From: Marsupella aquatica
Taxonomy: Eukaryota; Plantae; Marchantiophyta
Direction: 5' to 3'
Assembly (NCBI GenBank): GCA_973895155.1
Contig: OZ316899.1
Span: forward strand, 7,939,241-8,003,240
Length of the DNA stretch: 64,000 nt
The notes under the pieces are model-generated. The model was not told where the DNA came from. It worked only from the letters and a program-made list of their open reading frames with translations, and searched no databases. Below, one piece after another: positions 1-25,292 of this stretch. A program made the translations under genes and the position numbers. Each line of letters begins with the position of its first letter. The first letter of the stretch is position 1.

Positions 1-599
1 CACAGAATGGCATATACGGGGGATCTATGGAAGGCCTAGGAATTGTCGAGAACTAATCTGATTTTCTATCCCTCTGAGCGGATACTTGGTAGTGGTCGAT
101 TTGTGATGTGCTCCGATGTTTAAAGGGAACGCAGGCATGGAGCACTTGTGACAGGGAAGCAGTGACGGTCCTTTGTGGACAACTGGGAATCAGGAGCACG
201 CAAGATTTATGGTCAAGTGAAATGAATGGATGGCAAGGGCTGGCAGGACAGTGGTTATATCTACGTGGCTTCTCTGAGGAACACTTAACACTTGGACGCA
301 GATTCATTGGACTGTTAGCAGACATCCCTAGCTATGAGTGGGGATAGAGCCTGGGCCGGAGAGCTGGTGTTGGGCTGACAACCCAACAGCTCTAAGGATG
401 TTCAGAGTATCCAATAAGAGAGCATATCAGATGCTGAGAGATCGAGGAGGTGGGAGATTTACAGAGTTTAAACAGGACATGGGGAATTGCTAGCACGGGC
501 GACGAATGGAGTGCAAGTTGGGCGGGGCTGTGGGGATCGGACTTCTCTATGAGGCTAAGACATTTATGTGGCGAGTAGTAGCATCTAGGCTCTTCACGG

Positions 600-961
600 T
601 GTCATGCCGAGGGACAGTGCCGCTTGTGCACATCGGCATGTCCCTCGCATGCCCGCTAGGTATGGTTAGGGCTAGTGTACTACTTGAGTTAGTGTCATGT
701 TCTTGTAGCGAGTCTGGGCTGTTCTTGAAGCAAAAGAGGTTTGTTAGTGTGACGCCTGGACCCGGTCCTACTTAGGGCATGTTTTTCTTTGCCGTTCTTT
801 AGTTCTTCTTGAATCGCTGTGAGACAGAGTTTTTCAGAGGCTGCTCGTCGGTTCCGTACACGGAATTCACACAGTGATTCGTTAGATGCTCCCGGCCGAT
901 CTTGGCATCTCGCCGGTTTTCGATTCGATTTCAGTACGTTTGTTTCTATCACGCCTTTTAT
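600..961 (+). repeat. Repeat A1 (362 bp) of element A
   Basis: Matches 10095-10456 with two transitions seen by eye (T/C at 800, G/A in CCCGG/ACCGAT). Confidence 0.95.
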
Positions 962-974
962 TCAAGAAGAACTG
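960..974 (+). promoter_or_regulatory. Putative self-priming primer-binding site
   Basis: ATTCAAGAAGAACTG at the end of A1 is the reverse complement of (C)AGTTCTTCTTGAAT inside repeat A (801-814; 15/15 against A2); no TGG tRNA-type PBS is present. Confidence 0.75.
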
Positions 975-1291
975 CCGAGTTAGCGGTGAGGAGAAGAAGA
1001 TTGCTCGTGACGATTTTGACAATTTTTGGGTGAAGCCATTGCAATTTCCTTGACGAACATTGGAGCGACGGAATGAAAGTTATGGGTTTATGTTGTTATG
1101 TGTATACTTAAGTGTATACACATATCAATGCTCCCGAGGAGGTCTGGAGTTCATTTTCTGGTTGCATCCGCGACCCCTTTGCTTCTTCTTATTGTCACTG
1201 CCGCTTGCTGCCTCGACTGCTTTTGGGGGCCGTTTTCGCATTCCCGGCCACAGCTGCCGGCGAGTTTGCCTCGGCCGCAGCGAGACGCCTG

Positions 1292-2100
1292 CATAGGGCC
1301 GTGTGCCCTGGTTTCGACACGCTTCCACCCCGGCCTCCTCTTTACGTTTTCGCCTTTGAAGGCCCCGTTTTCTTCTTTTTTTCTCGACCTCCTCCGCTTT
1401 GGTGTGCAGGCTGTGCATAGGGCATCGTGCCCTTGCCTCGCCCATTTCTAAGCAGCCAGAGGAAGGGAAAGGAGCGCCAGGAGAGGGCACGAGGCCCTAG
1501 GCAACTTTAAAGCAGAGGGGGAGGGGAGTACATTCAACTCCCTCTCTCGGGAGTCCTGCCAAGCACGAGGCCCTAGGCAATCAATTAAAGCAGGGGGAGG
1601 GGGAGAAGCGCAAGGAGAGGAGGGCACGAGGCCCTATGGAGGATTAAAGAGGGGGGGTTACATTCGACTCCTTTCCCCTGGAGTCCTTCTGCCACTCTGC
1701 CACTCTGCCAGGCACACAAGCATTCATTAAAGCAGGAGAGGAGGGGGAGCGAGAGTGCCAGGAGAGGGCACGAGGCCCTAATAAGTAACATTAAGGAGGG
1801 GAGGGGGAGTTAGTCGCTCCCTTCTCTTCGGGAGCACATGAGGAGCCAGGAGGGGGCGCGAAGCCCTATGCAGGGCCCGAGCCATTGATTGAGACCCCTT
1901 TTCTTTTCGTTTTTGGTCGCTGCGCGACCTGCAGCGCCCATGTTTTTCCAAATCACAGTGGTTTGTGCATAGGCCCTGGTCTTAATTGGGGCCCCATTTC
2001 TTTTCTTTCGCTGCGCCCTCGCCTCGCTTCCTCGCTTCGCCGCGCTTTTTCCTCCTTAATTAAGTGCTCCGCAGCCTGTACGTACATAGGGTCTCGTCGC
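1292..2100. repeat. Dispersed ~15-bp motif (GGGCACGAGGCCCTA and reverse complement) in the long 5' leader of element A
   Basis: Forward copies near 1484, 1562, 1622, 1766, 1854; reverse-oriented degenerate copies near 1292, 1416, 2085. Confidence 0.7.
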
Positions 2101-2753
2101 TTTTCCCTTGTGCTTGCCAGTTTCTAGGTCCACAATGGGGCCCGATGTGTATACACTTAAGGGGGCCCATTTCACATTTTAGGGGCCCATTTTCCTCGGA
2201 TTCGGACATCAGGTCATCTGCATACGGCTGCGGGTCCCGTGTATACACATCTGACGGTCAATTTGGCATATACATCAGCAAACGCACAGGGGGCTAAATT
2301 TGCATTTTTAAGGGTACTTTTTCTCCGACGGTTTTTCGACGGTGACGGTTTTTCTGTGTGTTTACACATTCGACACATTTCTGCCTCGCATCGTTTGTTT
2401 CCTTTGTGGGTTTTATTTCCTAGCCTTGGGGCTGCCATTTCTTTTTCTTGTCAATTTCTTTCCCATTGGCACCCAGGTGAGCATGCAGCATGTCAGCCGA
2501 CGAGCCAGGAGGTAGCAGCACATCGCCACCGACACCCAGGTACCATTTACGGAGTGATCCACGACCATTGGTGCCAATTTCATTGGAGTCTCGGCAATTT
2601 TGACGACGTCCACAGACAGCAGCAGCACCCACACCACGCAATCCTTCTGCTCCATTTGGCGGTTGCTTCACCACTACTCCCAAGCCTGCTATCACTTCAT
2701 TGCCATTTACCCCTTCTGCATCCGTGGTTGTTCCTGCTTCACCGACATACAGC

Positions 2754-4292
2754 ATGGACGCCAGTCACTCATCTGGCCGCATTGAATGCTTCAGCGGGCG
2801 GCCAGGCACTGTTTCTTTGCGTGAGTTCAAATCCACTTTCTACACTGTTGTTTACGAATTGGAGTTGAAGTATGGCAGCAATTTCACAAATGCTTTTGCA
2901 TTTAAGCAGCTAGCCAGGTATGTGCACCACGAGGCTTTGGATGTGTATGAGCAGCACTCTCAACGGCTGCTTGCTGTCACACAATTGCCTAACCCTGCAT
3001 ATGCCACTGCAATTGCGGCTGCCTCACAACTGGCATTACAGAATGCCATTGCAGCCCATGCTGCTGCTCCTGCCACTTCCCCTCCTACTCCAGTTCCCAC
3101 CACTGCACCAGTTACTCCCACTGTCTTGGCACAGGCTACATCAGGCATTTCTCCCACCATTGATTCTCCTGCCTTTCCTGATCCAGTGGCTGAGTTTTTC
3201 CAGGTTCTTGAATTGCAATTCCCAATCAAGAGTGCTGATAAAATCATGCAGTTGGCCACCTTTGTGAGGCAACGCGATGAAACATTGAAGATGCTGTATC
3301 GCCGGCTTCTCAAGCTGAAGGAAGACACCCAAAGCATCATTGACCTGGAAGCTGCTCATCGCTATCTTCACGCATTGGAGGGCACACCAGCTCTCCATTC
3401 GCAAGTGTTGCAGCAAGTATTCTCAGAGTTTGGAGACAGCTACACCCTGCTCAATGTCTATGACACTGCTGAGAAACTTGAGTTGGCCCATGCACATTAT
3501 GAGGCCAGTATTGCGCGTCCACCGCGATCCAGGTACCAGGCTGCTGCCCCTACACTGGCCACCCCTTCCCGTGTGCCACAGTATGGTTCCAAGACCAAGC
3601 CAGCCCATGCTGCTCTCATGCTGCCATCTTGCAACTACTATGGTAAGCCCAATCACAAGGCTAATGAATGTGATATTGTTGCTGAGGACCTGTCTTGTGA
3701 TTTTTGCGAGAAAGTGGGCCACTTGGAGGCAGTTTGTTTTGCCAAATTCCCAGAGAGAAAGCAGCTACGATAGCAGGCCACTCATCCTGCTCCTGCTTCC
3801 ACTCCCCCACCAGCTAGGAGGGCTCCTACAGCATCCGTTGCTCCTCCTTCCAGTGACAAAGCATCCAGTGCTAACAAATTGCCCAAGCAGCAACAGAAGC
3901 AACCAGCTCAGAAGGAGGCTCACACAGCACAGGCAACTCAACTCCAGTCTCTGACTCATGAGGTTGAGTCATTACGTGCCCAACTTGCCAACATCAAAGG
4001 CAAGTCCACTGCCTCTGCTGGTCCTTCTCAACCGGCTGGTCACGTGCAACCCATCCCTGGCCCAGGCACCACTGACAGTTCAGCACCCCTACCCCGTTCT
4101 TTCTATGGCTTGCCATTTGATGCTCATATGGGTGAGTGTGTGCTGTCCTCTGCTACACAGCCTGGCCTTACAGCAGAATTTTCAGATTCATTCTGCCCTT
4201 CCTATTTTGCTTACCAGCAGGCCAGTGCTGCCTCCCGTATTGCTCCACACGCCGCATTGTACAAGCTGATGGTCTTGCTGCTGGTCCTATGA
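2754..4292 (+). pseudogene. gag: gag of element A, with an in-frame TAG at 3771-3773
   Basis: MDASHSSGRIECFSG start; two CCHC knuckles (CNYYGKPNHKANEC with C>Y, CDFCEKVGHLEAVC); ORF 3879-4292 is in the same frame after the stop. Confidence 0.85.
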
Positions 4293-5374
4293 CTAGAGCC
4301 AGGGGAGCTCGGGCTGTCATGCCCCAATCTTTTCAGCCACTCACACTTGCTGAAGAGCGCACCTTGTTGGCGAGGGGGGAGGGAGCTGCAGCTACATCCA
4401 TTCCACCACCAGGTGCTGCTGACATTTCACAGGGAGTTGTTTTTCCTGAGCTGCTTGAGCATTTCACCTCCGGTATGGCACAAAGGATTCTTACCACTTC
4501 ACTTTTCAGTTGCCATGATTTACAGCTGGATGCTAGAGCTGTCATCAGAGCGCTAGAGGGCTCACTGCATTCTTCATCAGCCCCTGTGACACCGGTTTTG
4601 GAGGTCCAATCTCATGTTAATACTGGACCTTCTTCTTCTCCATTGCATGCTTCCACTGGTTTGGCTATCCCAGTACCGATTTCCAGTGGTAGAGATGACA
4701 GTATTGCTGCAGATTGTGTGACCAGAGCTACACTTGATTCTGGTCATGCTGCTCCATCTTTCCTGGCTATGCTGTTGAGTGGGAAGACCGTGGACACTAA
4801 CTCCCTTCACAAGGTACCTCATCATTTGCCAAAAGTGGTGCCTAGTGACAGGACTTTAGTTTCCACCACCATTGCCATTGTTGACAACAGGAATTCAGCA
4901 GTCAAGTTGGAGGGTCACACTCCTCAGGTGGTCATGCTAGACACAAGTGCTCAACCAGTAATCTTGGGCATTCAGTTTGCCAAGAAGATGGGACTGCTGA
5001 CTGATCATTTACAGCCATCCAGGTGGCACATTCGGACTGCTAGTGGCACTGTGGAGGATGTGCTGGGTGAGAGTTCTACTTTACTCACTCTCACTTTTAA
5101 TGGAGGTACAGATCAGGAATTGCATTTCCCAGTCAGATGTTTGGTTACCAATGCCACTACGTATGATGTGCTCATTGGCCAGGAGGCTTTGTTCCCACCA
5201 GGTTTTACCATTGACAACTGGCATGAGCATGCATACTACAGAGTTGATTGGCATACGGATGGCTCACACTTGGGATACATTCCACTTGATTTGCATGGTG
5301 CCCATACCCCTATGGCTCACCACTGTGTGTTGAAAGCAGTGCACACAGCTACCTATGTCAACCACCCATTGTAG
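4250..5374 (+). pseudogene. Aspartic protease region of element A polyprotein
   Basis: VMLDTSAQP (DTG-like), IRTASG flap and YDVLIGQ motifs; frameshift near 4250; TAG 5372-5374 is in frame with ORF 5402. Confidence 0.8.
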
Positions 5375-5401
5375 GATTGGATTGAGGAGGATGAGGATGA
5401 G

Positions 5402-8400
5402 GTGGCTACTGCACATGCTGCTGCATGTGTAGCAGCACTTTCCAGCAACGTGGATCATCAACCAGAGGTGGTACAACGGCTCCAAGCAGCCCATGGACCT
5501 TTGGTGGCTGCATTGCACAAATTTGAGGACCTTGGGCAGCATCATGGACAACCAATAGCCCCAATCTTGAGCGCACCAGTTACATGGACTCCTCCTTCAG
5601 ATGGCCTTACATTGCTTGAGCTTTTTGGTGGCATTTCTACAGGCCTGGAAGCTCTCCTACAGTCTGGCATGGTGGTGAAGCAGTACATCTATGTGGATAT
5701 TGATCCAGGTGCAAGGCAAGTGGCTGAATCCCGTCTGCTGGAATTTTCAGAGCGATTTCCTCAGCAGTTTCCACACAATGCATGGAAGTCTGCATTTTCT
5801 TTCTTTCCTCCAGATATCCAGCTTGCCCAGCACCGGCACTTAACCCTTCTTGGCTCCCTTGATTTGATCATAGCTGGTTGGGAATGCCAAGGGTTTTCAG
5901 CTCCTGGTCACGGTGCTGGACTGCATGATTCTTGTTCTGGCCTTTTCACAGCATTGGTTCAGATTCTCACCTGGGCTCAATCCCTTTATCCTGCTGTTGG
6001 TTATATCATTGAGAATACTCCATCTCAGTTTGACCAGCGTCCACAAGTCAAAGAGGATTTCAGTGTGGTCCAGCACTACTTGGGACCACCCCTTCTCATT
6101 GATGCAGTGCACTGTGGTTCTTATGCACATCGTCTTCGTAACTTTTGGACTAACCTTGCACCACCTTCCTTGCTGGAGATGGCTCTTCACCACACATCCA
6201 GGGACACTAACCTTACAGTGGACCAGATTTTGGATCCTGACAGTTCTTGCCAACCAGTTACACGGCAAGAGCCAGCACCTTGGTATCCAGCTAATACCAT
6301 TGGACAACCCCGTGCTGCTTGGCCTACATTTGTGTCCTTTCCAGGTGCACATGCTTTTCAGGGTGATGGTCCTGGGCTGGTTTATCGACATTCTACCGGT
6401 ACATGGGATGAACCTAGTCCTGAGGAGAGAGAACGGGCTATGGGCTTCCAACCCGGTACTACAGGTCACACCAAAATCACCAGGCTGGCCAGGAATGCTT
6501 TACTTGGCAGGGTAATGGATCTCAATGCTCTCACTTGGCTTCTGGTCACTTGCATCCTTTTTCAGATGTACATTCCTCCAGCATTAGGAGCTCCAGCCTT
6601 ACCACTCCACAGTGCTGCTGCATGGCATCCAGACCAGGTGCACTTACCTCTGTCCAACACTCACCACTTCAGTCCAAGTGTTGGGGGGGAGGAGGTCCCT
6701 TGTAATGTGGCTGACATTATTTCTGAGTTTCATGGTGTGGATCAGACCAGAGCAACAGATACAGCAGGCCTTGGAGAGGCCTCATCACCTTATCAGCAGC
6801 ATGCTAGCAGCTTGGACAGTGGAGAGGCTGGCACTTCTGGCTCTTCAAGCACGAGTACATCAGGTCCTACTCCTAGTGTTGCCAACTACACATTTATCAT
6901 GGGCAACCACCTGAGTAAAAGACAGAAGGACCAGCTGCTGAATTTGCTCCTCAAGCATGAGAATGTGTTTGCTTTCTCTATGAAGGACTTGGGTAAGTGC
7001 AAGACTATGCAGTTCTCCATTGAGTTGGCTGATGAAACACCTATCTTCAGGCGGAGACACCGTTTGAGTAAGCATGAGTGGCAGCTGGTGGATGAGAGGT
7101 GCCAAGAGCTTTATGAAGCTGGTCTTATTCAACCATCTACATCAGATTTTGCGGCAGCTACAGTGATGCCAGCAAAGAAGGATTCCAGTGGATTGTGGAC
7201 AGAGAAGCGCATGTGTGGGGACTACAGGCCATTGAACCTGGTCACACCCCAGGACAGGTACCCCATGCCGCGGCCAGAGGAGCTATTTGACAGCATTGGA
7301 GACTCAGACATCTTCACTCTTGTGGATCTAAGGCAAGGCTTCAACCAGATTTTGCTGCTTGCAAAAGACCGCAAGAAAACAGCTTTCCATGGTAGTAACC
7401 AACTATGGGAGTGGTTGGTGATGCCATTTGGCTTGAAGAATGCGCCTATATTCTTTCAAAGAGTCATGGACCAGGTTCTTCAAGGTGCTGAGTTTCTGAA
7501 ATGCTACATTGATGATGTGTTGGTCCACAGCAAAGGATTTGACCAGCATCTACTTGACCTTGAGGAGCTATTCATGAGGCTTAAGAAGGTGAACCTAAAG
7601 ATACACCCCAAGAAGTGTGAATTTGCTGTCAGATCAGTAGTATACCTTGGGCACCGCATTCTTCCAAATGGAACCATGGCTCACTGGGCCAAGGTGGTAT
7701 CCATCTTGGAAATGCCCACTCCTACCGATGTTCACACTTTGAGGAGTTTTATTGGGTTGTGCAATTACTACCGGATCTACATCAAAGATTTCAGTACCAT
7801 TGCACACCCATTGTATGCTTTGTTGAAAAAGAATGTGACTTGGACATGGAGTACAGATGCTGAGGCAGCATTTGCCACTTTGAAGGAGAAGCTCTCAGAA
7901 TACCCGGTGCTGAGAAGACCTGATTTCAGCAAGGTCTTTGTGCTACACACAGATTGGAGTGCCCTTGGGATTGGTGCCATTCTGGGCCAGCATGATGAGG
8001 AAGGTAAAGAGTACGTCATTGCCTATGCATCCAGGAGCAACAATCAGGCAGAGAGTCATTATTCTTCTTATGAAGGTGAATGCCTTGCTGTTGTGTGGGC
8101 TGTCATACATTATAGGCCCTACCTCTATGGGACCAGGTTTGTTCTCTACACCGACCACCAGCCCTTGAAGTGGTTGATGACCAACGACAAGCTTACTGGC
8201 AAGCTTGCTCGTTGGGCGCTCATACTCCAGGAGTATGATTTTGAGGTAATTCATAGGCCTGGTGTGACACATCAGAATGCTGACACTATGTCCCGCAGCC
8301 CTTTGATTACCTCTGATGATTCCTCAGATGCACGGCAAGATTTTGACCAGGCTTCCATCCTGCCTACATTTCATGCATCGACCTATCTTGCTTTGCTGCC

Positions 8401-9877
8401 ATGCTATGTTGTTGACCAACCTGTGGTGGACATATGGGAGGACAGCGACACTCTGAGATTTTTGCAGCATGGGGAGTACCCCACACATGTTACTGCTGCC
8501 CAGAGAGACCGAATTCAGCAAAGGTCCAAGCGCTACTTGTGGAAGGGAGATCATCTCGTGCGTTGCTTGCCAGACAGGGAAGTGGTGGTTCCACCTATTC
8601 ATGAGAGGGTTGGCCTTATCCGTAAGGTACATTCTGAGCTTGGTCATTTTGGTGTTAAGAGGACTTACAGCCTCTTGGTCCCTCATTATCATTGGAGAGG
8701 CATGCATGGCCAGGTTCGAGATGTTATTGCCCGGTGTGAACAGTGTGATAGGGTGAGGACTTCCTTCACATCTCGACAACCCACACTTCATCCACTCCCT
8801 ATTCAGGGCATGTTTTATCGCTGGTCATGTGATTTGGCTGGAGAATTACCCCTCACGTCTCGGGGTAATCTCTACATCATGATCATGATAGAGCATTTCT
8901 CCAAGTGGATAGAACTTGTGGCATTGCCGGATAAGACCTCCCGTAGCACTAGCCAGGCATTCCTACAACAAGTTCTCAGCCGCTTTGGAGCTTGTGCAGA
9001 ATGTCTCACTGACCAGGGCTCAGAGTTTAGAGGAGAGTTCCAGGAGCTGCTTGATCAGGCCCTCATTGATCATCGCCGGACATCACGAGATCACCCACAG
9101 GCAGATGGCTTGGCAGAGCGCATGGTTCAGACATGCAAGAAGGGCCTCCGGAAGATCTGCCTCACCAAAAACAAGGAGGACTGGGACCTGGCCTTACCCT
9201 ACATTGCCATGGGGTATAGGATGTCCAGACATGCGTCATTGTCTAACTTTTCTCCCTACTTCTTGTTGTTTGGTCGTCACCCAGTTCCACCTTCTGCTAT
9301 TGCTGCTCACATGCTTCAGGTGGTGGACTTGGATTCAGCTGTGACTTGGTCTGATGTGATCTCTGAGAGGGCTGCCCTATTCAGGAGGGTTATGCCCATG
9401 GCCATGGAGAATTTGGCCATTGCACAGCACAGGGACACACTGCGTTATGCACACACACGAGGGGGCACTTTTCAGCCCAAGGTCAGGAAGTTTGATGTGG
9501 GAGATTTCGTGTACTTGCAGCGGCAAGCTAACGACACCCTGGACACCTCTACCAGTCGCACTATTCTCAGGGTCAAAGCTATTCGACCGTCTGGAGTGCT
9601 AGAGTTACAAGGGGCAGATGGGCGCACAATTGCTGACAATGCCAAGAATTGCGCCCCTTGTCATCTGCCTAACCTGGATCCCACCATTGTGACTTCTACT
9701 TGGATTCCACCTGTGGACTACCCTTGCAAAGTGTGTTTGCGAATTGATGATGCTGACCAGATGCTGCTGTGTGACAATTGCAATGGAGGGTACCATCTTT
9801 TCTGCCTTCGGCCTGAACTTACCCAGGTGCCAGAAGGGTTATGGTTTTGCCTTTCCTGTGCTCCACGTGCTATCTGA
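5402..9877 (+). CDS. pol: pol polyprotein: C5 DNA methyltransferase - RT - RNase H - DDE integrase - PHD finger
   Basis: RT: RMCGDYRPLN, MPFGLKNAP, YIDDVLV; RH: LHTDWS, YEGECLAVVW, YTDHQPL; INT: HSELGH..CEQC zinc finger, WSCDL, LTDQGSEF, DGLAERMVQ; uninterrupted 1491 aa. Confidence 0.95.
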   Translation: MATAHAAACVAALSSNVDHQPEVVQRLQAAHGPLVAALHKFEDLGQHHGQPIAPILSAPVTWTPPSDGLTLLELFGGISTGLEALLQSGMVVKQYIYVDIDPGARQVAESRLLEFSERFPQQFPHNAWKSAFSFFPPDIQLAQHRHLTLLGSLDLIIAGWECQGFSAPGHGAGLHDSCSGLFTALVQILTWAQSLYPAVGYIIENTPSQFDQRPQVKEDFSVVQHYLGPPLLIDAVHCGSYAHRLRNFWTNLAPPSLLEMALHHTSRDTNLTVDQILDPDSSCQPVTRQEPAPWYPANTIGQPRAAWPTFVSFPGAHAFQGDGPGLVYRHSTGTWDEPSPEERERAMGFQPGTTGHTKITRLARNALLGRVMDLNALTWLLVTCILFQMYIPPALGAPALPLHSAAAWHPDQVHLPLSNTHHFSPSVGGEEVPCNVADIISEFHGVDQTRATDTAGLGEASSPYQQHASSLDSGEAGTSGSSSTSTSGPTPSVANYTFIMGNHLSKRQKDQLLNLLLKHENVFAFSMKDLGKCKTMQFSIELADETPIFRRRHRLSKHEWQLVDERCQELYEAGLIQPSTSDFAAATVMPAKKDSSGLWTEKRMCGDYRPLNLVTPQDRYPMPRPEELFDSIGDSDIFTLVDLRQGFNQILLLAKDRKKTAFHGSNQLWEWLVMPFGLKNAPIFFQRVMDQVLQGAEFLKCYIDDVLVHSKGFDQHLLDLEELFMRLKKVNLKIHPKKCEFAVRSVVYLGHRILPNGTMAHWAKVVSILEMPTPTDVHTLRSFIGLCNYYRIYIKDFSTIAHPLYALLKKNVTWTWSTDAEAAFATLKEKLSEYPVLRRPDFSKVFVLHTDWSALGIGAILGQHDEEGKEYVIAYASRSNNQAESHYSSYEGECLAVVWAVIHYRPYLYGTRFVLYTDHQPLKWLMTNDKLTGKLARWALILQEYDFEVIHRPGVTHQNADTMSRSPLITSDDSSDARQDFDQASILPTFHASTYLALLPCYVVDQPVVDIWEDSDTLRFLQHGEYPTHVTAAQRDRIQQRSKRYLWKGDHLVRCLPDREVVVPPIHERVGLIRKVHSELGHFGVKRTYSLLVPHYHWRGMHGQVRDVIARCEQCDRVRTSFTSRQPTLHPLPIQGMFYRWSCDLAGELPLTSRGNLYIMIMIEHFSKWIELVALPDKTSRSTSQAFLQQVLSRFGACAECLTDQGSEFRGEFQELLDQALIDHRRTSRDHPQADGLAERMVQTCKKGLRKICLTKNKEDWDLALPYIAMGYRMSRHASLSNFSPYFLLFGRHPVPPSAIAAHMLQVVDLDSAVTWSDVISERAALFRRVMPMAMENLAIAQHRDTLRYAHTRGGTFQPKVRKFDVGDFVYLQRQANDTLDTSTSRTILRVKAIRPSGVLELQGADGRTIADNAKNCAPCHLPNLDPTIVTSTWIPPVDYPCKVCLRIDDADQMLLCDNCNGGYHLFCLRPELTQVPEGLWFCLSCAPRAI
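5603..6545 (+). other. DNMT3-like C5 cytosine methyltransferase domain inside pol
   Basis: Motifs in canonical order: I LELFGGIS, II YVDID, IV DLIIAGWECQGFS, VI YIIENT, VIII AHRLRNFWTNL, IX EERERAMGF, X RNALLGR. Confidence 0.92.
9724..9862 (+). other. PHD finger (C4HC3) at integrase C-terminus
   Basis: CKVC...LLCDNC..GYHLFCL.P.L..VPEG.WFCLSC. Confidence 0.93.
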
Positions 9878-9909
9878 CTTTTCTTCAGCCCTCCTTTTGG
9901 CTGTGGTCT

Positions 9910-9916
9910 GGGGGGG
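9910..9916 (+). promoter_or_regulatory. Putative polypurine tract of element A
   Basis: G7 run directly before repeat B1, about 30 nt after the pol stop. Confidence 0.65.
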
Positions 9917-10092
9917 ATACAGAGGTTTACACCTCCACTACGTACATACCACCTCAGTTGCTTTTTCTTGGCACCTGTGAATGTGATTGGACTTTTTCTA
10001 TGCATGTTGGTTGCTAGCAGCTTGCACATATGCATTGCCGGTGACTTGTATGTTTTCGATACACTATGGCTACGATACTATATGTCACGACA
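9917..10092 (+). repeat. Repeat B1 (176 bp) of element A
   Basis: ATACAGAGG...TGTCACGACA, no difference seen from 10457-10632. Confidence 0.95.
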
Positions 10093-10094
10093 GC

Positions 10095-10456
10095 TGTCAT
10101 GCCGAGGGACAGTGCCGCTTGTGCACATCGGCATGTCCCTCGCATGCCCGCTAGGTATGGTTAGGGCTAGTGTACTACTTGAGTTAGTGTCATGTTCTTG
10201 TAGCGAGTCTGGGCTGTTCTTGAAGCAAAAGAGGTTTGTTAGTGTGACGCCTGGACCCGGTCCTACTTAGGGCATGTTTTTCTTTGCCGTTCTTCAGTTC
10301 TTCTTGAATCGCTGTGAGACAGAGTTTTTCAGAGGCTGCTCGTCGGTTCCGTACACGGAATTCACACAGTGATTCGTTAGATGCTCCCGACCGATCTTGG
10401 CATCTCGCCGGTTTTCGATTCGATTTCAGTACGTTTGTTTCTATCACGCCTTTTAT
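10095..10456 (+). repeat. Repeat A2 (362 bp) of element A
   Basis: Direct copy of 600-961, separated from B1 by GC. Confidence 0.95.
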
Positions 10457-10632
10457 ATACAGAGGTTTACACCTCCACTACGTACATACCACCTCAGTTG
10501 CTTTTTCTTGGCACCTGTGAATGTGATTGGACTTTTTCTATGCATGTTGGTTGCTAGCAGCTTGCACATATGCATTGCCGGTGACTTGTATGTTTTCGAT
10601 ACACTATGGCTACGATACTATATGTCACGACA
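10457..10632 (+). repeat. Repeat B2 (176 bp) of element A
   Basis: Direct copy of 9917-10092 abutting A2 with no spacer. Confidence 0.95.
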
Positions 10633-11761
10633 ACGGGGGTTAGGGTGGTCAAAATTGGTAAAGGTAATGGTGAGTGCAAGCTGTGTCCTGGAACACTGGA
10701 GACTATTCCACACTTGTTCATGACCTGACAACATGCACAGCGCTGCTGGCAGCTCTATTCTCAAAGCTTTGAGGGCATAGTTGCGGATTATTCTGTGGGG
10801 TTGTGTGGGATGATAAATTTTACGGTGGATAAGGAATATAGGAAGGTAGTTAAAATGTGTCTTATACCAGATATTGTGCATGATATAGTTGGGACATAAT
10901 GAGCATATGTTCAAGCAGGGCGGGGCCCAGAGGTTTGATATTTGATTTGCTCTCAGAGGTGGTGGATCATGTCACTACGGTCGGGCTTACACTACCAACG
11001 AGTAACAGACGGACTAGGCTGCTGCGGGTGAAAGAGATTATAAATGAAGAGCGGCTCACATGGTTGAGGCGTTGGGACTGCTAGATCACATCAAGGTAGT
11101 GTAGGAAAGATTGAATGTGGGATAGTAGGCTGGCTAGGTGGATGGATTGTTGTAGGATAAGTCTGTTATGGTAGTCAGATTGGTCTCTTGTGCCTGATGG
11201 CTAGTAGGAATACATGCTACGGGTGCTGTTGGTAAGCCAATTGCATTTGAGTCACGGAACTTGACTACCTTAACACTTAGCTCCGGCGTCACTGACTCCG
11301 ACGCCGAGCTCCCTTATGGTCCAGGCCCGGATAGGCCATCCGGGGAGGACTTAGCATGGGGAGACTTGTGGGCAATGAGACGTGGCACTAGCGAGGCAAG
11401 GAGCCAAGCTAGGGACATACACTAAGGACTTGGACTAGCTGATAGCTGGTCGGGTCAAGGGGAAATGGGCCGGGCTCAAGGATGGCCATCCGGACCTCCG
11501 GATGGACTTTGAGTTCTGAGGGCTTGAGTGTGAGCTCCTCTTGGGCCCAAGGCCCATGGAGTTGATGCCATGGGCAACGGACGCTTGGGGCGCAAGTTAT
11601 GGCCCAATCCGGGTTGGGCCGGTCGAGGGGCCCAAGTAGCAATGAGACTTGAGGGCCTAGGCATGAGCACTGGGTCAGCCCGATCACAATGGGCTAAGGC
11701 ACTCCACTTGCAGATGCCTAACAAGAAAGGTATGGGCGTTGGCAGTTGGTGGTGCGCCCAT

Positions 11762-12573
11762 TGTCGTGCCAAAAGATTTCGGCTCAGGAATGGCTTTTAT
11801 AGGGGATGATGGGCGAGGCCTCTCGGTTGGGTTGCATGCATGCTGACTTGGAGGGGCTGCTTGGTTGGTTGGATTGAGGTTTGGTGATTGGGTGACTCAT
11901 CGTCACCAGGTTTAGTGTTTGGGTGAGTCACCAGGCTTGGAGTTTGGATGAGCCTCGCTGATGGCAGCTGGCTCAGGCTGGATGGTCGGGTTTCTGATGC
12001 TACTTAAGACTTGAGCCTTGGCTCATTGAGGTTGGCGGTTGTCTATTGAGATCTGTTGAGTTGCGTTCTGTGAGTTCCGCTCCGTTCTGCGGAACTCGAC
12101 TGCTGTGCAGCGGTTTTGGAGTTCTGGGCAAGTGTTGGATCCAGGTGTGGAGTTTTTGATCCAGGCGGGGATTTCTCAAGTTTGCAGTCTCGTCAATCCA
12201 GGCGAGGATTTCTCGAGTTTGGAGCCTCGTTGGACCAGGCCCGAGTTCCGTGTGAGCTATTTTAGACTAGTGGAGTAGCTAGTCGAGTTTTGGTTTTGTG
12301 AGCTAAGGAGGATAGTTTTTCCGTCAGATTTTTGAGTAGGTAGTCACTCGAGGAGTTCTACTCGACAAGTTAGAGGTAGCGGCCTGCCGTAGGGCCAGCT
12401 ATCAGACTCTTGCGGGCAAGCTTACTCGAGGGCACCTATTGTAACCTTTGTGAGAAAAGTAAAAAATATAAAAGAGTGAGAGTTTGCTCCGAAAAGTGCT
12501 TGTTGCCTGTCCCAATCACAGCCATAAACGCGCAATTTTCCCGAGGAGCCCCTAACTTTAAGTCCTCGCGACA
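11762..12573 (+). repeat. 5' LTR of element B (812 bp)
   Basis: Direct repeat of 18433-19279; contains ~35-bp GATCCAGGCG tandem units. Confidence 0.95.
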
Positions 12574-12574
12574 T

Positions 12575-12592
12575 TGGCGACCATACTGGGGA
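12575..12592 (+). promoter_or_regulatory. tRNA primer-binding site of element B (Arg-like, tentative)
   Basis: TGGCGACCATACTGGGGA one base after the LTR end. Confidence 0.75.
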
Positions 12593-12615
12593 TTCCTTGG
12601 GGCGATTGGATGAGA

Positions 12616-15600
12616 TGGATGACTATGACAAAGTTGATCGGATCTGGAGCATCGTCATGTCGATGATGAGAACCATAAGGAAGGAAGAGCTTGAGGCAGA
12701 AAGGGCGAATAGGGAAGCGAATAGAACTACTCGGTGTCTCCAAGAGGTTCTGAAGGAGAATGGGCAATTTGATGGGAGAAATGTGACAAGCTACCTTAAG
12801 TCTTACTTGACAGAAGCAGCTGTCTACAAGTTGGACGAAGGGACGGCGGTGAAAGAGTTCATGGTGCTGGTTGAGAAAGAGTTGAGTTTGACGGTGCGGA
12901 CCATCGTTGAGTCAACTGAGGGCTGGGATGACTTCGACCAGAAGATGAAAGAGGAGTTCCAAGCGGAGGATGTTGATTGGGTCACGCAGGCTACCTTCTT
13001 GGATTGGGTGAATGATAGGAACAAGAACCTGAAGGGGCCGCAAGAGCTCCTAAGGGAGTTCAAGAGAAGGGTGTCTCAGTTACCAAAGCGGGATGTGGGA
13101 ATCATAGAGTTGCAGCGCTCAATGCTCTTCTTGAGGGCAGCCGATGAGGACCTTTGAGAGGAGCTTGAGAACGCAATGGAGCTGCTGGAACCTTCGAGAG
13201 TTACCTTGTCTAACAACTGGAACCAAGTTGAGAAAGCGGTGTTGAAAGTGAGCAATCGACACCGGCGGCGAGAGCTAGACAAGGAGGCTACCACTCTCGA
13301 CCTAAGGCCGCCGGAACTGATATTGAGGAAAGGGAAGCGAGAACCAGTGAAGGATGAGATCAAACCATTGATGGATGATCTCTCGGAAATGATGCAGAAC
13401 CTGAAAATCTTGGCGGCACATGCGGTCGAGAATCCAAAACCGAGGGTTGCGAGTGCTCCCGAGAGGAAGCAAGAGATGCAGAGTTGGCCATGCATGTGCT
13501 GCCACAGCAAAGAGCATGACAAACGGGAGTGCTTGGACCTGAGGGAAGCTGCGGATAAAGGGTTGATCAAGTTCATTGGTGAAGTTGGTCAGAAAAAGAT
13601 ATCGTTTGCCAATGCTGAAGAGTCGATTCCATTCAACTCCAACAAGGGAGGCATGAAGGATTTGGCTGAGAAGCGAGTCAAAGAGGCGTCCTCTTCACAC
13701 CCGGAAGCGAATGTTTACAATGTGGAGTTGGATGGCCCCGTGACGGAAACGGACAAGTTTTACAAGCGCTTGGCGGATCTGGTGCGAGAGAGATCCGGAT
13801 GGAGTGACCCGGTGCTGATCAATGCGATAACGGTTGAGGTTGGGGCTAGTTGGGATGCCTCGGTCGAGTCAAAAAGGAAGAAAACCGACAAGGATGACAC
13901 TCCGTCTCAATCAAGGGAACGAGAGAGGCGGGATACTTGAGACAAGGAGAGAAGGGTTAGGTTTGAAGAAGAGGAAATGAGCAAGAAAGAGCCGGAGAAA
14001 GGGAAACCGAACAGGAAGGACCCAGGCTGGGTGCTTGGCAGGGATGTGGACCAGGCCATGTACCCGGAGGTTGTAGCTGAGAAGTTTTGGAGCCAATTGG
14101 CTCAAGGGTTTACCAATGCTGAGTTCTTTGGCAGTATGAGGCGGGAGATCCAGGAAGCAATCTTGGAGAGATCCAAGAGGAAACAGATTTACAAAGAGGG
14201 CCCTCACACCTTGGCGGGGGAGGATGGCGAGATGGAAATTGGGAGTTTCTGAACTTACACTGCTGGGGCGTCCATGGGTTCAGGTAGTAAGCTTGCTGGC
14301 CCCGAAGAGTCAGACTTGGAGAAACCAAAGAGGGTCAAGTCCCTTGAAGAGGAGCTCGTGAACTTGGACGATGAGTCCTTCGAGGCGGAAGAGGAGCTCA
14401 TGGGAACCAGAAGCAAAGCTGAGTCTATGGCAAACAGGGACCCGACTAAAGGGGAAGAATGAGAAAGCATTACTGCGCTGTCAAGGACCATTCATGTCAT
14501 GGGCTCAATGAAAGGAAACAGTTATGCTTACCGAGATGGATACTGGGCTCGAGCAAGTCCGGAGAGTGAGTGCCAGTTGGAAGGAATGGAAGGCAAGGTG
14601 CGGGCGCTCATTGATACTGGCTTGGAGATCAACTTGATGGATCCAAAGGTGTTTCAAAAGGGGAATTGGCCGGTGGATAATGAGTTGCTTTGGAGTGTGA
14701 ACTCGGTGAGTTCAACGAAGGACTATCTTTGGGGCGGATATCCAAATGTGATGGTGAAGTTCGGGAATGTCAAGCAGGCTTGTAACATTTTTGTTCATGA
14801 GCACTTGTCGTTTCCGGTGATACTGGGCATGCCGTTCATCACTGAATGGAGGATGGAGACGAAGGTTCTGGATGATACTACCTTCATGGTGAAGGTTCGG
14901 AGCAAAGATGGGAAAGAGGTGGTTCAATTTCTGGTTGTTTTACCTGGAAACGAGAGGAATAGGAAAGGGTTGAGGACTGAGAGTGCCGATGCTGGTCTAG
15001 GTCCGGAAAACAACTTGGCACTTCGCTGAAAAGAGTGGATCGGCGGAGTGCTCGTTCCTTAGCTCCTTGTGAAGGGGAAACACTATGGATAATGGGGAGG
15101 AAGAGCCACTCAAATGTGCGGAGTCTAACTTGGGAAGGGACAAGCTGGAGAAGGAGTTGGAAAGGCAGTACTTGTCTATGGCCGTGCTTGTATACTCAAG
15201 TACCAAATACAAGACGGTTGACAAGAAGGTGAGGCCGGCGGCGATACCTTTGCCGGACGATGCGATGGAGGTTATGGATCGAGCGAGATTGGAACCAAGG
15301 CTGAGGCCAACTGATCGGATAGGGCATAAGTTTACTCAAGAGAGTTTGGCAAAGCTTAAGATTGGTTCGGATGGGTTACTTACAGAGGTGGAGCAAGTGG
15401 CATTTCAAAAGATGATAATGGAGCATGGCAAGGCATTCTCATTTTTGATTGAGGAGATTGGTTGTGCGGATCCGAGTAAGGTGACGCCAATGGTCATCTT
15501 TACTGTCCCTCATGTTCCGTGGGATCTGAAACCAATTTTGGTTCCACGGGCTTTAGCTCCGAAGCTTGCAGAATTGCTTAAGGAGAAGTTGAGTGCTAGG

Positions 15601-18293
15601 ATTCTCGAGAGGTCTGATGCTCCCTACTCGAACAAATGGTTTACAATGAGAAAGAAGAATGGAAGCTTGAGGTTCATTTAGGATATGCAACCTCCAAACA
15701 AGGTGACCATAAGGAATATGGGAGTTGGGCCACTCGTGGATGAGTTTGCAGAAGAGTTCGCTGGGAGGGCGATCTACTCCATGGGTGATTTGTTTTTGGG
15801 TTACGACCAGTTCCAGTTGGCGCAAGAGAGCCGAGATATTACGACTATGAGGACCCCGCTAGGCCTCTTGAGGATGTGCACTCTTCCTCAAGGGGCGACG
15901 AACTCAGTACCGCACGTGCAAAATGTGATGAGTAAAATCTTGGAGTCGTTCATTCTGGAAAAACCGAGACCATTCATTGATGATGTCCCGATAAAGGGGT
16001 GCTTGGTTGAAGGGAAGGATGAGACCATGAGGAGTGATGGGATCCGACAGTTTGTTGTGGGATCACATTGCTGATGTTAAGGCAGTTCTTGAGAAGCTGA
16101 TTGATGTGGGAGTCACTCTTTTGGGGGAGAAGTCTGAATTCGGGATGAAAGAGGTGAAAGTCTTTGGGCAAATGTGCGGATCTTATGGAAGGAAGCCGAA
16201 CATGGATAAGGTGAGAGCTATTAGCGAGATGATGGATTGCAAATTGGTGCCGGAAGTTTGGAGGTTTATGGGTGCTTGTGTCTTTTACAAGATCTGGATC
16301 CCTCACTTCTCGCACCTGGCGGACCCGCTCTATGAGCTGTTGAGGAAAAAGGTTAAGTGGAGATGGCTACCCAAGCATAGTGAAGCAATGGCTAAGCTTA
16401 AGAGCGCTCTCATGAGCCCGCCAGTTCTCCGAGCTGTGGACTATGAGAGCGGGCAACCACTGATCATGATTGTTGATGCGAGTCTGTTTGCAGCCGGGTG
16501 GGCTGTTGGGCAAGATGACGAGAATGGGGACAGGTATGCGATCAGATTTGGGGCAATTTTTTTTACAAAAAGGCAAAGGAGATATGCTCAAGTTAAGAGG
16601 AGCTTTGGGGTGCCAAAGTGGCACTCCATCAGGAGAGGAACTATTTGATTGGGGCACCGGTGGTGGTTGAGATTGATTGCCAATTGCTGCTGGGGATGAT
16701 TGCGAATTGTGACACGCCTGACATAGCAATGCTCAGGTGGATTGCTTTCATTTGGATGTTCAACCCTGAGCTAAGTCACATTGCAGGAAAGGATAATCCG
16801 GTTGCCGACATGCTGTCAAGGGCAAGATTTGGAAATGAGGTAGTAACGAGAGTTGGCAAGGTGACTGGAACCGAAAGTGTTGGAAGTCTAGAGTTCAAGG
16901 AAGAACTCTACTCGGGAGAGTTGCTGGATATTGGGCGTTATATTAGCACTTTGGAGAAGCAACCAGAGTGGAGTTACCAGGAGTTTGTCAAGATCCGAAA
17001 GAGATCTTACAAGTTCCTATTGAGGGAGGGCTACTTGTGGCGAAGGCATAAGGACCCAAATCAGTTGTTGCAGAGGTTGTGGATACTAAGGATGAGAAAG
17101 ACCGAATTCTCAAAGAGTGCCATGATGCTGACATGGATGGGCACAAAGGGGTGCATTTGACTTACGAGAGGGTTCGGAAGCTGTACTGGTGGCCAGGTTT
17201 ATACTTGGCCGTTCGAGACTATGTCGAGACTTGCGAGATTTGCCAGTTTTACTCGAGGATCCGACATGGGGATGGATTGGTTCCAACTTACCCCGTGGCT
17301 CTACACTTTCAATGGGCTGTTGATGTGGTGTACATGCCGAGAGAGAGCAATGGGGCGAGATACTTGGTTTTGGTGAGAGAAGACTTGTCTTCTTATGTGG
17401 AAGGGAGAGCGTTGGTTTCGAACACTATTGCTGCCGTTTGCCAGTTCATACTTGAGGATATCATTGCAAGGCATGGGTGCTTTACAAGGATCAGAGCTGG
17501 TAGGGGGGATCTCAGCTCCAAGGAAGCGCAAGAGTTTTTTGACCAATACCGCATCAAACTGAAGCTGACTTCAAGTTACAATCCGGAAGGCAATGGGAAA
17601 TCTGAAAGGGGGCACATCCAGATTGTGAGCGCTTTGGCTAAGGCTTGTGATGGGGACTTGGGCAGGTGGTCAATTCTCCTTCCACTTGCTCTGTTAGCGG
17701 ATCGGATGACTTGTAGCTCAGTGACCGGATACGTTCCGACTGAGCTACTTGCTGGGCACTTGCCAATGATGCCACTCGAGGAAGATGTTTGCAGCTGGCG
17801 ACTGATTGGATGGAATGATGAAGTTTCAAGAGAGGAGTTGCTGGCTCGAAGGATCGAACACTTCAACTTGTTACCCGCAAAGACTGAGGTGGCTCGGAAG
17901 CAATTGAAGATGGCAAGGTTAAGGAACAAGGGCAGGTTCGACAGGACTCATCGGTTGAGGCCTGTCTTGGTTAAGGATTGGGTTCTGGTTTACAAAAGTA
18001 AGTTGGACGAGCAACACTTGAGCCGAAACAAGTTTTCTAGGAGGTGGCAAGGTCCGTATGTGGTGGTTGTTATTCATGCAAATGCGACCTACACTATTCG
18101 GGAGTTGGATGGAACAGTTCACCAAGTACCTTACGCAGGGAAAAGGGTGAAGATCTTCAAGAGGAGGACCAAGAAAGGAATGGACTCAAGTTCTGACTTG
18201 AGTGAATTTGAAGATGAGGCACTGGTCCAGGCGCATCCGTTAGACTTGAGTTTCAAAAGTGGCTTGACTGGTTCTTATACGGATGGTTCCTAA
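12616..18293 (+). pseudogene. gag-pol of element B, broken by several stops and frameshifts
   Basis: FDGRNVTSYL gag start, CMCCHSKEHDKREC knuckle, ALIDTG protease, LPQGATNS/FIDDVPI RT, IVDAS RNase H, H..H..CEIC and NGKSERGH integrase, RRWQGPY. Confidence 0.92.
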
Positions 18294-18432
18294 GGCCGAG
18301 TCTGAAGGCTTTGGGTTTGAGTTTCTTGAGGAGGAAGTGGTCCAGGCGCATGGCTCGAGTTTGGACTCAGACTTAGAGGAAATCTGATGGATTGGAGCAG
18401 ACTGGAGGCTGCTAAGGTTTACTGGGGGAGGA

Positions 18433-19279
18433 TGTCGTGCCGAAAGATTTCGGCTCAGGAATGGCTTTTATAGGGGATGATGGGCGAGGCCTCTCGGTTG
18501 GGTTGCGTGCATGCTGACTTGGAGGGGCTGCTTGGTTGGTTGGATTGAGGTTTGGTGATTGGGTGACTCGTCGTCACCAGGTTTGGTGTTTAGGTGAGTC
18601 ACAAGGCTTGGAGTTTGGATGAGCCTCGCTGATGGCAGCTGGCTCAGGCTGGATGGTTGGGTTTCTGATGCTACTTAAGACTTGAGCCTGAGCTCATTGA
18701 GATTGGCGGTTGTCTATTAAGATCTGTTGAGCTGCGTTCTGTGAGTTCCGCTCCGTTCTACGGAACTCGACTGCTGTGCGGTGGTTTTGGAGTTCTGGGC
18801 AAGTGTTGGATCCAGGTGTGGAGTTTTCAATCCAGGCAGGGATTTCTCAAGTTTGGAGTCTCATTGATCTAGGCGGCGATTTCTCAAGTTTGGAGTCTCG
18901 TCGATCCAGGCGAGAATTTCTTGAGTTTGGAGCCTCGTTGGTCCAGGCCCGAGTTCCGTGTGAGTTGTTTTAGACTAGTGGAGTAGCTAGTCGAGTTTTG
19001 GTTTTGTGAGCTAAGGAGGATAGTTTTTCTGTCAGATTTTTGAGTAGTTAGTCACTCGAGGAGTTCTACTCGACAACTTAGAGGTAGCGGCCCGCCGTAG
19101 GGCCAGCTACTAGACTCTTGCGGGCAAGCTTACTTGAGGGCACCTATTGTAACCTTTGTGAGAAAAGTAAAAAATATAAAGGAGTGAGAGTCTGCTCCGA
19201 AAAGTGCTTGTCGCCTGTCCCAATCGCAGCCATAAACGCGTAGTTTGCCCGAGGAGCCTAACTTTAAGTCCTTATGACA
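18433..19279 (+). repeat. 3' LTR of element B (847 bp)
   Basis: Direct repeat of the 5' LTR with one more ~35-bp unit. Confidence 0.95.
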
Positions 19280-24462: not shown

Positions 24463-25292
24463 CGGTAACCCGGATGCAGTGGTGGATTCCTTCCTCGTGA
24501 CTGGCTCGGGGAAGGTGACACTTCCCCATCCTCCCGATCGGGCCTGGGTAGTGCCACTGCCGTTAGTAACGGGCCCGGGTCAGCCATGGTCACCATGTTG
24601 TCTGCCGGGGCCGCTCCTGGGGTCAGAGCAGGGAGTGGGGACGATATAGTGTCGGCCCCCTGAGCGCTTGTTCCTCTGGGCCGCCTGGTCAAGGGTGGGG
24701 TAGCCTCGTCGTCATCGCTAAGATCCACAACGTTGATGACGGAGCGTACTTGTGCTGGTTGGGCGATCGGTGGTGGGGTTTGGCTAGGCTGCGGCTGAGG
24801 CTGAGGCTGAAGCTGAAGCTGAGCCTGAGGTTGAGCCTGAGGTTGAGCCTGAGGTTGCATGGGTACGAGTATGGGTTCGATTGAGTTGGTCATGTTGGTT
24901 GATGGCCGAGTTCCCATGAAGCTCTGTAGGTGCTGGTAGAAGTTCTCCGAAGCGAGTGCAGACGACCTTGTCGAACGGGTAGTGCTGGACTTGCTGTTGA
25001 TGATAGCCCGAACCTGAGCAGGGATGTGGTCAAAGTGATGTCGTTGCAAGTCGATTGTACCCGGGATATTGAAGACCTCGTCCGGAAGCCGAAGCAATGC
25101 TTCCCAAAAACCGATATATTTGTCTCCGTTGAAGAAGTACCCAGATACCTCTGCTGGTCGGTAAAGCTCACTCTGAGATGGGTAGTCAAAGTTAAGGATG
25201 TAGTGGTGTCGTCCTGCTAGGCGGATGGCTCTCTCGTACTTGCGTTCGATTTCGTATCGGCGCGGGTTGGCGTGTTTCAATGAGTCGGCCAA
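24450..25292 (-). CDS. E ORF1, unknown function
   Basis: 280 aa with QP repeats; YFFNGDKYIGFWEALLRLPD matches FFFEGRKYLGFGEALLRLPD in 48657-49229. Confidence 0.6.
   Translation of the reverse strand: MADSLKHANPRRYEIERKYERAIRLAGRHHYILNFDYPSQSELYRPAEVSGYFFNGDKYIGFWEALLRLPDEVFNIPGTIDLQRHHFDHIPAQVRAIINSKSSTTRSTRSSALASENFYQHLQSFMGTRPSTNMTNSIEPILVPMQPQAQPQAQPQAQLQLQPQPQPQPSQTPPPIAQPAQVRSVINVVDLSDDDEATPPLTRRPRGTSAQGADTISSPLPALTPGAAPADNMVTMADPGPLLTAVALPRPDREDGEVSPSPSQSRGRNPPLHPGYRWPR

Follow-up and report, generated by a model that had tools for sequence, protein, structure and literature searches.

Within a 64,000-nucleotide stretch of DNA (the window), a retrotransposon-encoded cytosine methyltransferase of the DNMT3 type had been predicted between a protease and a reverse transcriptase. 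The locus raises the questions of whether the domain is what it resembles, whether it is maintained beyond this one insertion, and what such an enzyme might do for the element that carries it.

The domain and the element that encodes it

The domain was found in a 10-kb Ty3/Gypsy element at positions 600-10632, in the order gag-PR-DNMT-RT-RH-IN-PHD (Table 1). One open frame of 1500 amino acids (5375-9877) contained the methyltransferase domain, reverse transcriptase (RT), RNase H, integrase and a PHD finger, the last four all scoring above the Pfam cut-offs. The Ty3/Gypsy features were the PR-RT-RH-IN order, a Ty3-like RT, a DDE integrase, TG...CA at the ends of the element and a short target duplication. 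The element does not belong to the DIRS order, since a DDE integrase was present and no match to the recombinase family was found in the four frames scanned. The PHD finger resembled those of WSTF, KDM5 and ATXR5, which are of the type that reads unmodified H3 tails. The right flank of the element encodes what looks like a zf-RVT-like remnant of an old LINE (PF13966, a weak match at E 0.034), and the LINE-like frame read on across the insertion site.

Table 1. Features of the element, in window coordinates
Feature	Position	Strand	Basis or remark
Left target-site duplication, ACGG	596..599	+	Same 4 bases at 10633-10636
Repeat A1; starts TGTCATG (integrase-type TG end); contains predicted promoter, start site and R-U5	600..961	+	360/362 identical to A2
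Predicted transcript 5' end and self-primer	801..814	+	Complementary to 960-973, 14/14
Primer-binding site (PBS), self-priming type, flush with A1 end	960..974	+	Pairing with primer
Long 5' leader; degenerate internal repeats at ~1450-1810; without CpG depletion	962..2753	+	
gag region; zinc-knuckle-like Cys/His stretch at ~3630-3750	2754..4900	+	Broken: stop 3771-3773, frameshift ~4244
Aspartic protease	4901..5191	+	PF13975 E 5.9e-6, just under cut-off; followed by in-frame stop 5372-5374
DNMT3-like C5-cytosine methyltransferase domain, non-permuted	5585..6580	+	Cys 5885, Glu 6011, Arg 6131 and 6137
Reverse transcriptase core, Ty3-like	7199..7660	+	YIDD at 7505
RNase H	7847..8236	+	Pfam
DDE integrase: H2C2 zinc finger, core, C-terminal part	8594..9700	+	Best matches Ty3 and foamy-virus integrase
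PHD finger, end of Pol	9725..9859	+	Pol stop 9875-9877
G7 polypurine tract (PPT), flush with B1	9910..9916	+	Kept in 14/14 independent long 3' ends of relatives and in L160
Repeat B1, ends CACGACA	9917..10092	+	176/176 identical to B2
Palindrome GACA-GC-TGTC where B1 meets A2; putative internal integrase site	10089..10098	.	Sole such site in window; 2-base spacer in 14/14 relatives and L160
Repeat A2	10095..10456	+	Repeat comparison
Repeat B2, ending in CA; flush with A2, where an LTR end is predicted to meet an LTR start	10457..10632	+	
Right target-site duplication, ACGG	10633..10636	+	Same 4 bases at 596-599

The motifs of a C5-methyltransferase occurred in canonical, non-permuted order (I, ELFGG, 5618; IV, GWECQ, 5876; VI, IENT, 6008; VIII, AHRLR, 6125; IX, ERAMGF, 6431; X, LLGR, 6500), all in the same frame as RT, which confirmed that part of the original prediction. 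The match to the Pfam DNA_methylase model that was to identify the domain was weak (E 0.0029, 17.5 bits, below the 22-bit cut-off), and the identification came instead from three other comparisons. DNMT3A was the top match of the domain in a phmmer search of the PDB (E 4.6e-7); a profile built from 59 family sequences matched DNMT3A at 1e-25, DRM at 6e-14 to 5e-10 and HhaI at 7e-9; and an AlphaFold2 model (pLDDT 96.2, pTM 0.93) matched DNMT3A in Foldseek at E 1.1e-18. The model superimposed on DNMT3B with a Z score of 29.2 (rmsd 2.5, 271 aligned), compared with 25.1 for M.MpeI and 19.7 for DNMT1. Judged by profile E-values and structural Z scores rather than by a tree, the domain was thus nearest to DNMT3, ahead of DRM, DNMT1/CMT, DNMT2 and the bacterial enzymes, and the preference for DNMT3 over DRM that had been read from a few motifs held in all three comparisons. 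It is virtually certain that a DNMT3-like C5-methyltransferase is encoded in this Ty3/Gypsy Pol. Its location between protease and RT stood as predicted, while its extent was corrected from 5603..6545 to approximately 5585-6580, and the protease was in the same frame but behind the stop at 5372-5374.

The paired repeats differed at only 2 of 538 bases and the insertion is therefore young, in agreement with the suggestion that the copy was recently mobile. It carried three lesions, the stops at 3771 and 5372 and the frameshift near 4244, so this copy is dead and cannot make the enzyme itself. A stop at 4290 was rejected as a further lesion, because it lies behind the frameshift. In protein P0001 and in the Calypogeia fissa protein P0152, gag-PR-DNMT was one continuous frame. 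In four public runs, with 10818, 6121, 1980 and 1004 contigs aligned, nearly all of the depth at both stops showed a different letter, and the stop lesions are therefore private to this copy. After base 10092, many unlike flanks were found, in 9 and 14 contigs with an agreement of 0.46 and 0.40, a diversity that fits many insertions, where contig depth in these runs is not to be equated with copy number.

Relatives and constraint

The closest named relative was a polyprotein of the liverwort Calypogeia fissa, with 79% identity in the domain and 85% in a partial RT, and Sphagnum-named fragments were 58-66% identical to the window. The host is therefore likely to be a bryophyte, in keeping with the land-plant genome suggested originally. 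A metagenome search matched at least 600 stretches, at least 485 of them encoding a relative; the best 80, with 60-76% identity, were retained. These loci, termed moss-type because a Sphagnum-named protein resembles them (median 80%) more than it resembles the window, kept the domain order of the window wherever the domains were present. The domain is accordingly not confined to a single insertion, as it would have been had the original prediction been wrong, but is found in many loci and in contigs of other organisms. A profile search with an E-value limit of 1e-30 gave 297 clusters. Of 171 proteins inspected, 42 had the order RT-RH-DNMT-IN-PHD and many more had partial versions of it, while in a minority the domain followed the protease. 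In the chlorophyte relatives, the domain was located between RNase H and integrase. The named members of this wider family were from Tetradesmus, Hariotina, Monoraphidium, Scenedesmus, Haematococcus and Cymbomonas; no Klebsormidium-named match occurred among the matches listed, most of which lacked an organism name.

For the 62 sequences that had both DNMT and RT, the patristic distances of the two domains were correlated (rho 0.52, Mantel p 0.001), but only 14 of 30 supported DNMT splits recurred in the RT tree; the five sequences with DNMT before RT formed one group in both trees, which were unrooted FastTree trees of the elements without host enzymes. The simplest reading of these sequences would be a single capture, after which the domain changed its place in Pol. 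The viral contigs and prokaryote genomes searched contained no close donor from phages or bacteria. In the close alignment to viral contigs, none of 26 pattern matches was a relative, and what the wide alignment gave was weak and partial, with 24-47% identity over short stretches and E-values no better than 1e-8. Of 32 loci from prokaryote genomes, 31 were weak and partial, and the remaining one, L160, was a full element that is evidently eukaryotic DNA inside a prokaryote bin. With the bryophyte and chlorophyte relatives, methyltransferase-bearing retrotransposons reach beyond one charophyte alga into land plants and chlorophytes. Such a range suggests that the domain was captured once, long ago, in green plants and moved inside Pol later, and is not a Klebsormidium oddity.

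Conservation was assessed in 155 diverse domains, mostly 30-45% identical to that of the window. The catalytic cysteine and the motif VI glutamate were present in every one, and the two motif VIII arginines in 154 and 152, respectively. The dipeptide in motif IV was EC in 92 and PC in 52, and motif VI read ENT in 66, ENV in 56 and ENA in 22. PC is the textbook motif IV dipeptide and was present in DNMT3A by alignment. EC and ENT had been taken for changes that might alter activity or specificity. They may do so, but they are states of the family and not lesions or peculiarities of this copy, and PC and EC alternate inside the clade. The median Ka/Ks of the domain, computed between the window and the 80 loci (74 with Ks defined), was about 0.10, a value to be read with Ks near saturation and with pairs that are not independent, the window sequence being common to all. 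The corresponding values were 0.105 for the protease, 0.09 for RNase H, 0.06 for RT and 0.04 for integrase. The domain is therefore under purifying selection; neutral evolution, which would also have counted against the prediction, does not fit. In old, dead moss-type copies the motif VIII arginine codons were often mutated, with arginine in 50/80 and 49/80. Because the cysteine, glutamate and arginines are conserved and Ka/Ks is low, the family retains an enzyme that looks active by its sequence and very probably is active. It also looks abundant and recently active in bryophytes, which makes the role of the enzyme testable in hosts with plant-type methylomes.

Permuted repeats and a predicted integration route

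The stranger feature of the element, missed in the original prediction, is its permuted repeats. The layout was A-coding-B-GC-A-B, with A starting in TG and B ending in CA. With the priming sites included, the order A-PBS-coding-PPT-B-GC-A-B departs from the ordinary LTR layout of two complete flanking repeats, and the TG was located 178 bases 3' of the PPT, not directly after it. The repeats A and B of the window aligned to those of the moss-type loci over 22 bases at most, and so the latter were found by self-comparison, initially in 29 of the 80 loci and then in all 80.

Several observations indicated that the PBS is complementary to the 5' end of the predicted RNA, as in self-priming elements, 1) the 14 base pairs between the PBS and the predicted transcript start extended to 15 with the A2 copy, while the best of 300 shuffles gave 12 and none reached 13 or more, 2) among 24 independent moss-type left ends, 22 paired at 12-15 of 15 positions, one paired at 10 and one had no site, 3) the moss-type primer and PBS differed from those of the window by two compensatory pair changes, and 4) the moss-type primer began 32 nucleotides 3' of a TATA box in 20 of 21 cases. 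There was no tRNA gene within the 64-kb window. L160, whose RT is 51% identical, had G7, a B of 108 bases and the same palindrome in the order seen here; its primer and PBS paired at 13/13 with a sequence different from that of the window, a score reached by 2 of 300 shuffles. If synthesis is primed at the PBS and at the G-run, the LTR would be B-GC-A, with tips that lack TG...CA. The A2|B2 joint would then be an LTR end joined to an LTR start, and the integrated ends would come from the middle of the LTR.

The joints differed in precision. Indels were absent from G-run|B and from CA-nn-TG in all of 14 independent long 3' ends, whereas the A|B joint was imprecise in 6 (Fisher p 0.016); these are old copies in short-read assemblies, and the count includes L006, which may be a substitution, among the six and the ambiguous L032-minus among the precise. 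Single contigs of close relatives had a shortened A2 against an exact start of B. At 10 two-ended sites, the 4-bp target duplication was exact in 6, differed by one transition in 3 and was absent in 1 (L006). The mirror form, A-B-A-coding-B, was not found in any of the 24 independent left ends. Another 10 independent 3' ends had B only, one of which shared its site with a long copy. Short A-coding-B copies were rejected as proof of integration by a 1-LTR circle, because the short L022 and the long L057 occupy the same site and short forms can therefore derive from long ones or from assembly.

These features suggest the following cycle. RNA would start at 801 in A1 and terminate within A2, and its first 14 bases would pair with 960-973 to prime the minus strand, as in Tf1. 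The G7 tract would prime the plus strand, giving a cDNA with B-GC-A at both ends and no TG...CA at its tips. Integrase would then make a 2-base staggered cut, CA|GC|TG, in the upstream LTR and insert the resulting ends into the target, staggered by 4 bases. If a symmetric 2-LTR circle were the substrate, half of the insertions should have the mirror form, so that its absence from the 24 left ends would require an asymmetry at this step; one may be provided by the upstream LTR, which would become double-stranded well ahead of the other LTR during plus-strand synthesis. The cDNA tips, the end of A and the start of B, would be joined end to end to yield A-coding-B-GC-A-B, either before integration as a 2-LTR circle or afterwards as a repaired break. 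The chemistry of the internal cut has precedent, since foamy-virus and HIV-1 integrases can cut internal palindromic LTR junctions according to the parts of those reports available (PMC1180852, PMC1905944). An internal cut by integrase combined with end-joining is probably the route taken.

Ngaro, PAT-like and VIPER elements typically have this layout too (PMC6681497, in part), and that of the Klebsormidium element was called DIRS-like in the accessible text (PMC5890265). The layout could accordingly be remade as in these tyrosine-recombinase split-direct-repeat elements, with RNA extending into B2, the A|B joint simply inherited, and integrase acting on an ordinary linear molecule whose TG...CA ends derive from the internal B-GC-A joint. 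The absence of the mirror form and the 8 of 14 ends with a precise A|B joint agree with such a scheme. However, A ends exactly at the covarying PBS and B starts exactly after the G-run, a minus strand primed at the PBS and jumping to A2 would by this reasoning not copy B2, and the indels cluster at A|B; inheritance of this kind is therefore considered unlikely. Short repeats are prone to mis-assembly and L006 had no target duplication, but the idea that faulty assembly or a single rearrangement produced the layout was refuted by the long 3' ends of other organisms, 14 of them independent, the target duplications and the LINE-like frame that continues across the insertion, which leave it a negligible probability.

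The preferred route, internal cutting and end-joining, turns a layout that had merely been noted before into a testable mechanism. Most retroelements get no further by routes of the 2-LTR-circle type. Routine use of an internal site by a DDE integrase, together with end-joining, would, if confirmed, bring back the old circle-junction model and make it part of a normal life cycle. Without paired terminal LTRs, such elements are likely to be missed or mis-bounded by standard LTR finders. The literature searched, with subscription journals, theses and Repbase outside its scope, contained no description of this priming and integration route and no account of the bryophyte (Calypogeia, Sphagnum) or chlorophyte members.

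Probable target of the methylase and comparison with known systems

Methylation of the cDNA by the encoded enzyme was proposed by de Mendoza et al. in 2018 (PMC5890265). As far as the available text of that report goes, SymbioDIRS-Dnmt3 domains methylate CG de novo in yeast, while the Klebsormidium domain gave no methylation there, a result judged inconclusive by its authors (PMC5890265). In the present element, 14 codon-boundary CpG were observed in pol where 104.6 were expected (0.13), compared with ratios of 0.25 in gag and 0.49 in a neighbouring Gypsy, and NCG codons accounted for 15/481 in pol against 97/329 in that neighbour (Fisher p 3e-27). CHG was undepleted in the element (42 vs 31.5) and depleted in the neighbouring Gypsy (22 vs 36.5). 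On the other hand, CpG was kept in repeat A1 (1.04) and in the leader (0.72), both of which are part of the cDNA; 3 of 9 other frames in the window had values of 0.22-0.36; in complete moss-type copies the flanks were more CpG-depleted than the coding region in 9 of 10; and L160 was barely depleted (0.59-0.74). The CpG loss is thus non-specific and the compositional evidence for self-methylation of cDNA is mixed. In old moss-type paired repeats, C>T differences were found at 74 of 234 CG, 41 of 133 CHG and 169 of 1234 CHH sites, from which it follows that hosts methylate these elements.

On this evidence, it is fairly likely that the methylase targets the cDNA of the element at CG. Packaged with Pol, the enzyme would mark the cDNA so that a new copy arrives CG-methylated. 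An active methylase might instead mark a specific site, such as the CpG within CACGACA in one arm of the predicted integrase site, or the neighbourhood of integration, or it might damp the activity of the element itself. The CpG of that arm was retained in all three families despite the loss of coding CpG, repeat A and the leader escape the loss, L160 shows no depletion, and in the chlorophyte forms the domain adjoins integrase-PHD. The loss of coding CG without loss of CHG in a young copy nevertheless fits broad CG methylation over many cycles, and a job other than camouflage of the whole cDNA seems unlikely. The domain might also be kept for a non-catalytic role, in nucleic-acid or SAM binding or as a spacer, with the CpG loss being the work of the host. 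EC in place of the textbook PC and the methylation of these elements by their hosts could be read in this way. The inactivity of the Klebsormidium domain in yeast points in the same direction (PMC5890265, in part). The invariance of the cysteine and glutamate, the near-invariant arginine pair and the alternation of PC with EC in the clade argue against such a role, which appears quite improbable.

Taken together, the locus is a recently inserted, broken copy of a Ty3/Gypsy family, likely of a liverwort or another bryophyte, and there is a slightly better than even chance that working copies both methylate their own cDNA at CG and integrate by a cut inside the LTR. A broader reading is tentative, falling a little short of even: a lineage that spans the green plants, from prasinophytes to liverworts and mosses, would have shifted its integrase site to the middle of the LTR, propagate only through end-joining of the cDNA tips, and methylate its cDNA with its own DNMT3-like enzyme, which may mark which of the identical sites is cut.

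The domain has the same fold and motif order as the catalytic domains of mammalian DNMT3A/DNMT3B (Z 29.2 and 27.8) and differs from them in its sequence (about 20-26% identity), in the lack of PWWP or ADD, in EC for PC, and in its location inside a retroelement polyprotein. The kind of element, including the A-coding-B-A-B repeats, is already published as KnitGypsy-Dnmt3 of Klebsormidium nitens (PMC5890265), and a 2025 paper, in the portion available, still cites only that report (PMC12344493). As had been suggested by analogy with charophyte Gypsy elements bearing a DNMT3-like domain, the present element matches that description: both have an intronless, non-permuted Dnmt3-like domain in a Gypsy Pol, purifying selection and A-coding-B-A-B repeats (PMC5890265). 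The comparison is by description only; the host of the window element is likely a bryophyte, close relatives of the element are abundant in several organisms, and its self-priming site, poly-G tract, internal CA-GC-TG and 4-bp duplication are absent from the accessible text on KnitGypsy-Dnmt3 (PMC5890265). SymbioDIRS-Dnmt3 of Symbiodinium, as described there, also has a Dnmt3-like domain in Pol and an A-coding-B-A-B layout but integrates by tyrosine recombinase, whereas the window element has a DDE integrase and a target duplication (PMC5890265).

Self-priming is known from Tf1 and has been predicted for the plant element Tcn1 (PMC4600332, PMC6317226, each in part). The Tf1/Sushi group and Tcn1 resemble the window element in having a PBS complementary to the predicted 5' end of the RNA, not to a tRNA, but they are chromoviruses with ordinary LTRs, in contrast to the PHD finger, methylase and permuted LTRs found here (PMC4600332, PMC6317226). 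At the 2-LTR circle junction of foamy virus and HIV-1, a DDE integrase cuts an internal palindrome to processed ends, as predicted for the present element (PMC1180852, PMC1905944). In those viruses, as far as the sections available describe them, the palindrome arises only when the LTR tips are ligated, whereas the palindrome of the window element, with its 2-base spacer, belongs to the mid-LTR sequence itself, and no integrase site is present at the tips (PMC1180852, PMC1905944).

Other elements and repeats in the window

The window also carried a second, degenerate Gypsy-type element, which served as the composition control for the main element, together with several related long frames and an inverted repeat. 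No Pfam match was found for these long frames; they may be accessory genes that belong to other mobile elements.

Further features of the window
Feature	Position	Strand	Remarks
Second Gypsy-type element, degenerate	about 11760-19160		Ordinary paired repeats 95-96% identical; RT and integrase remnants
Several related long frames	22825-25325, 37015-37683, 42448-47348	minus	Sited between further repeat families
Inverted repeat	56429-56546		44 bases, 98%, 30-base loop

Methyltransferase domains in related elements

A strict DP-x...S/A-P-P/L pattern was present beyond the PHD, in the C-terminal tails of four of the 75 long relatives (P0004, P0007, P0013 and P0469). The pattern is reminiscent of amino-methyltransferase motifs, suggesting that some algal elements may encode two methylases; the Pfam D12 match to the P0004 tail was weak (E 0.37). 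P0023 (2086 aa) is a non-LTR-type RT protein with matches to PHD and PCIF1_WW, and the methyltransferase domain at its C-terminal end falls in the same clade as that of the main element (33% identity) and has the PC form, with proline preceding the catalytic cysteine. P0023 is a possible further capture of the domain by another class of retroelement.

The distant element L160 (L160:1-9285) was complete and located in a cyanobacterial bin, evidently as eukaryotic contamination. Its assembly has a 127-base terminal overlap, and the circular form is either a repeat collapse or a real circle.

The integrase site and the LTR ends

The CpG in CACGACA (window 10079-10092), adjoining the predicted integrase site, was retained despite the loss of CpG from the coding region. 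The same CpG was also retained, despite coding CpG loss, at the B ends of the moss-type copies, relatives from the metagenome scan, where it occurs in tandem repeats.

In the PHD-bearing, laboratory-active Gypsy-7a of Chlamydomonas, the final 8 bases found in the right LTR are missing from the left one, according to a figure legend (PMC9940879, Fig. 6). The difference described in that legend might represent the LTR permutation of the main element in minimal form.
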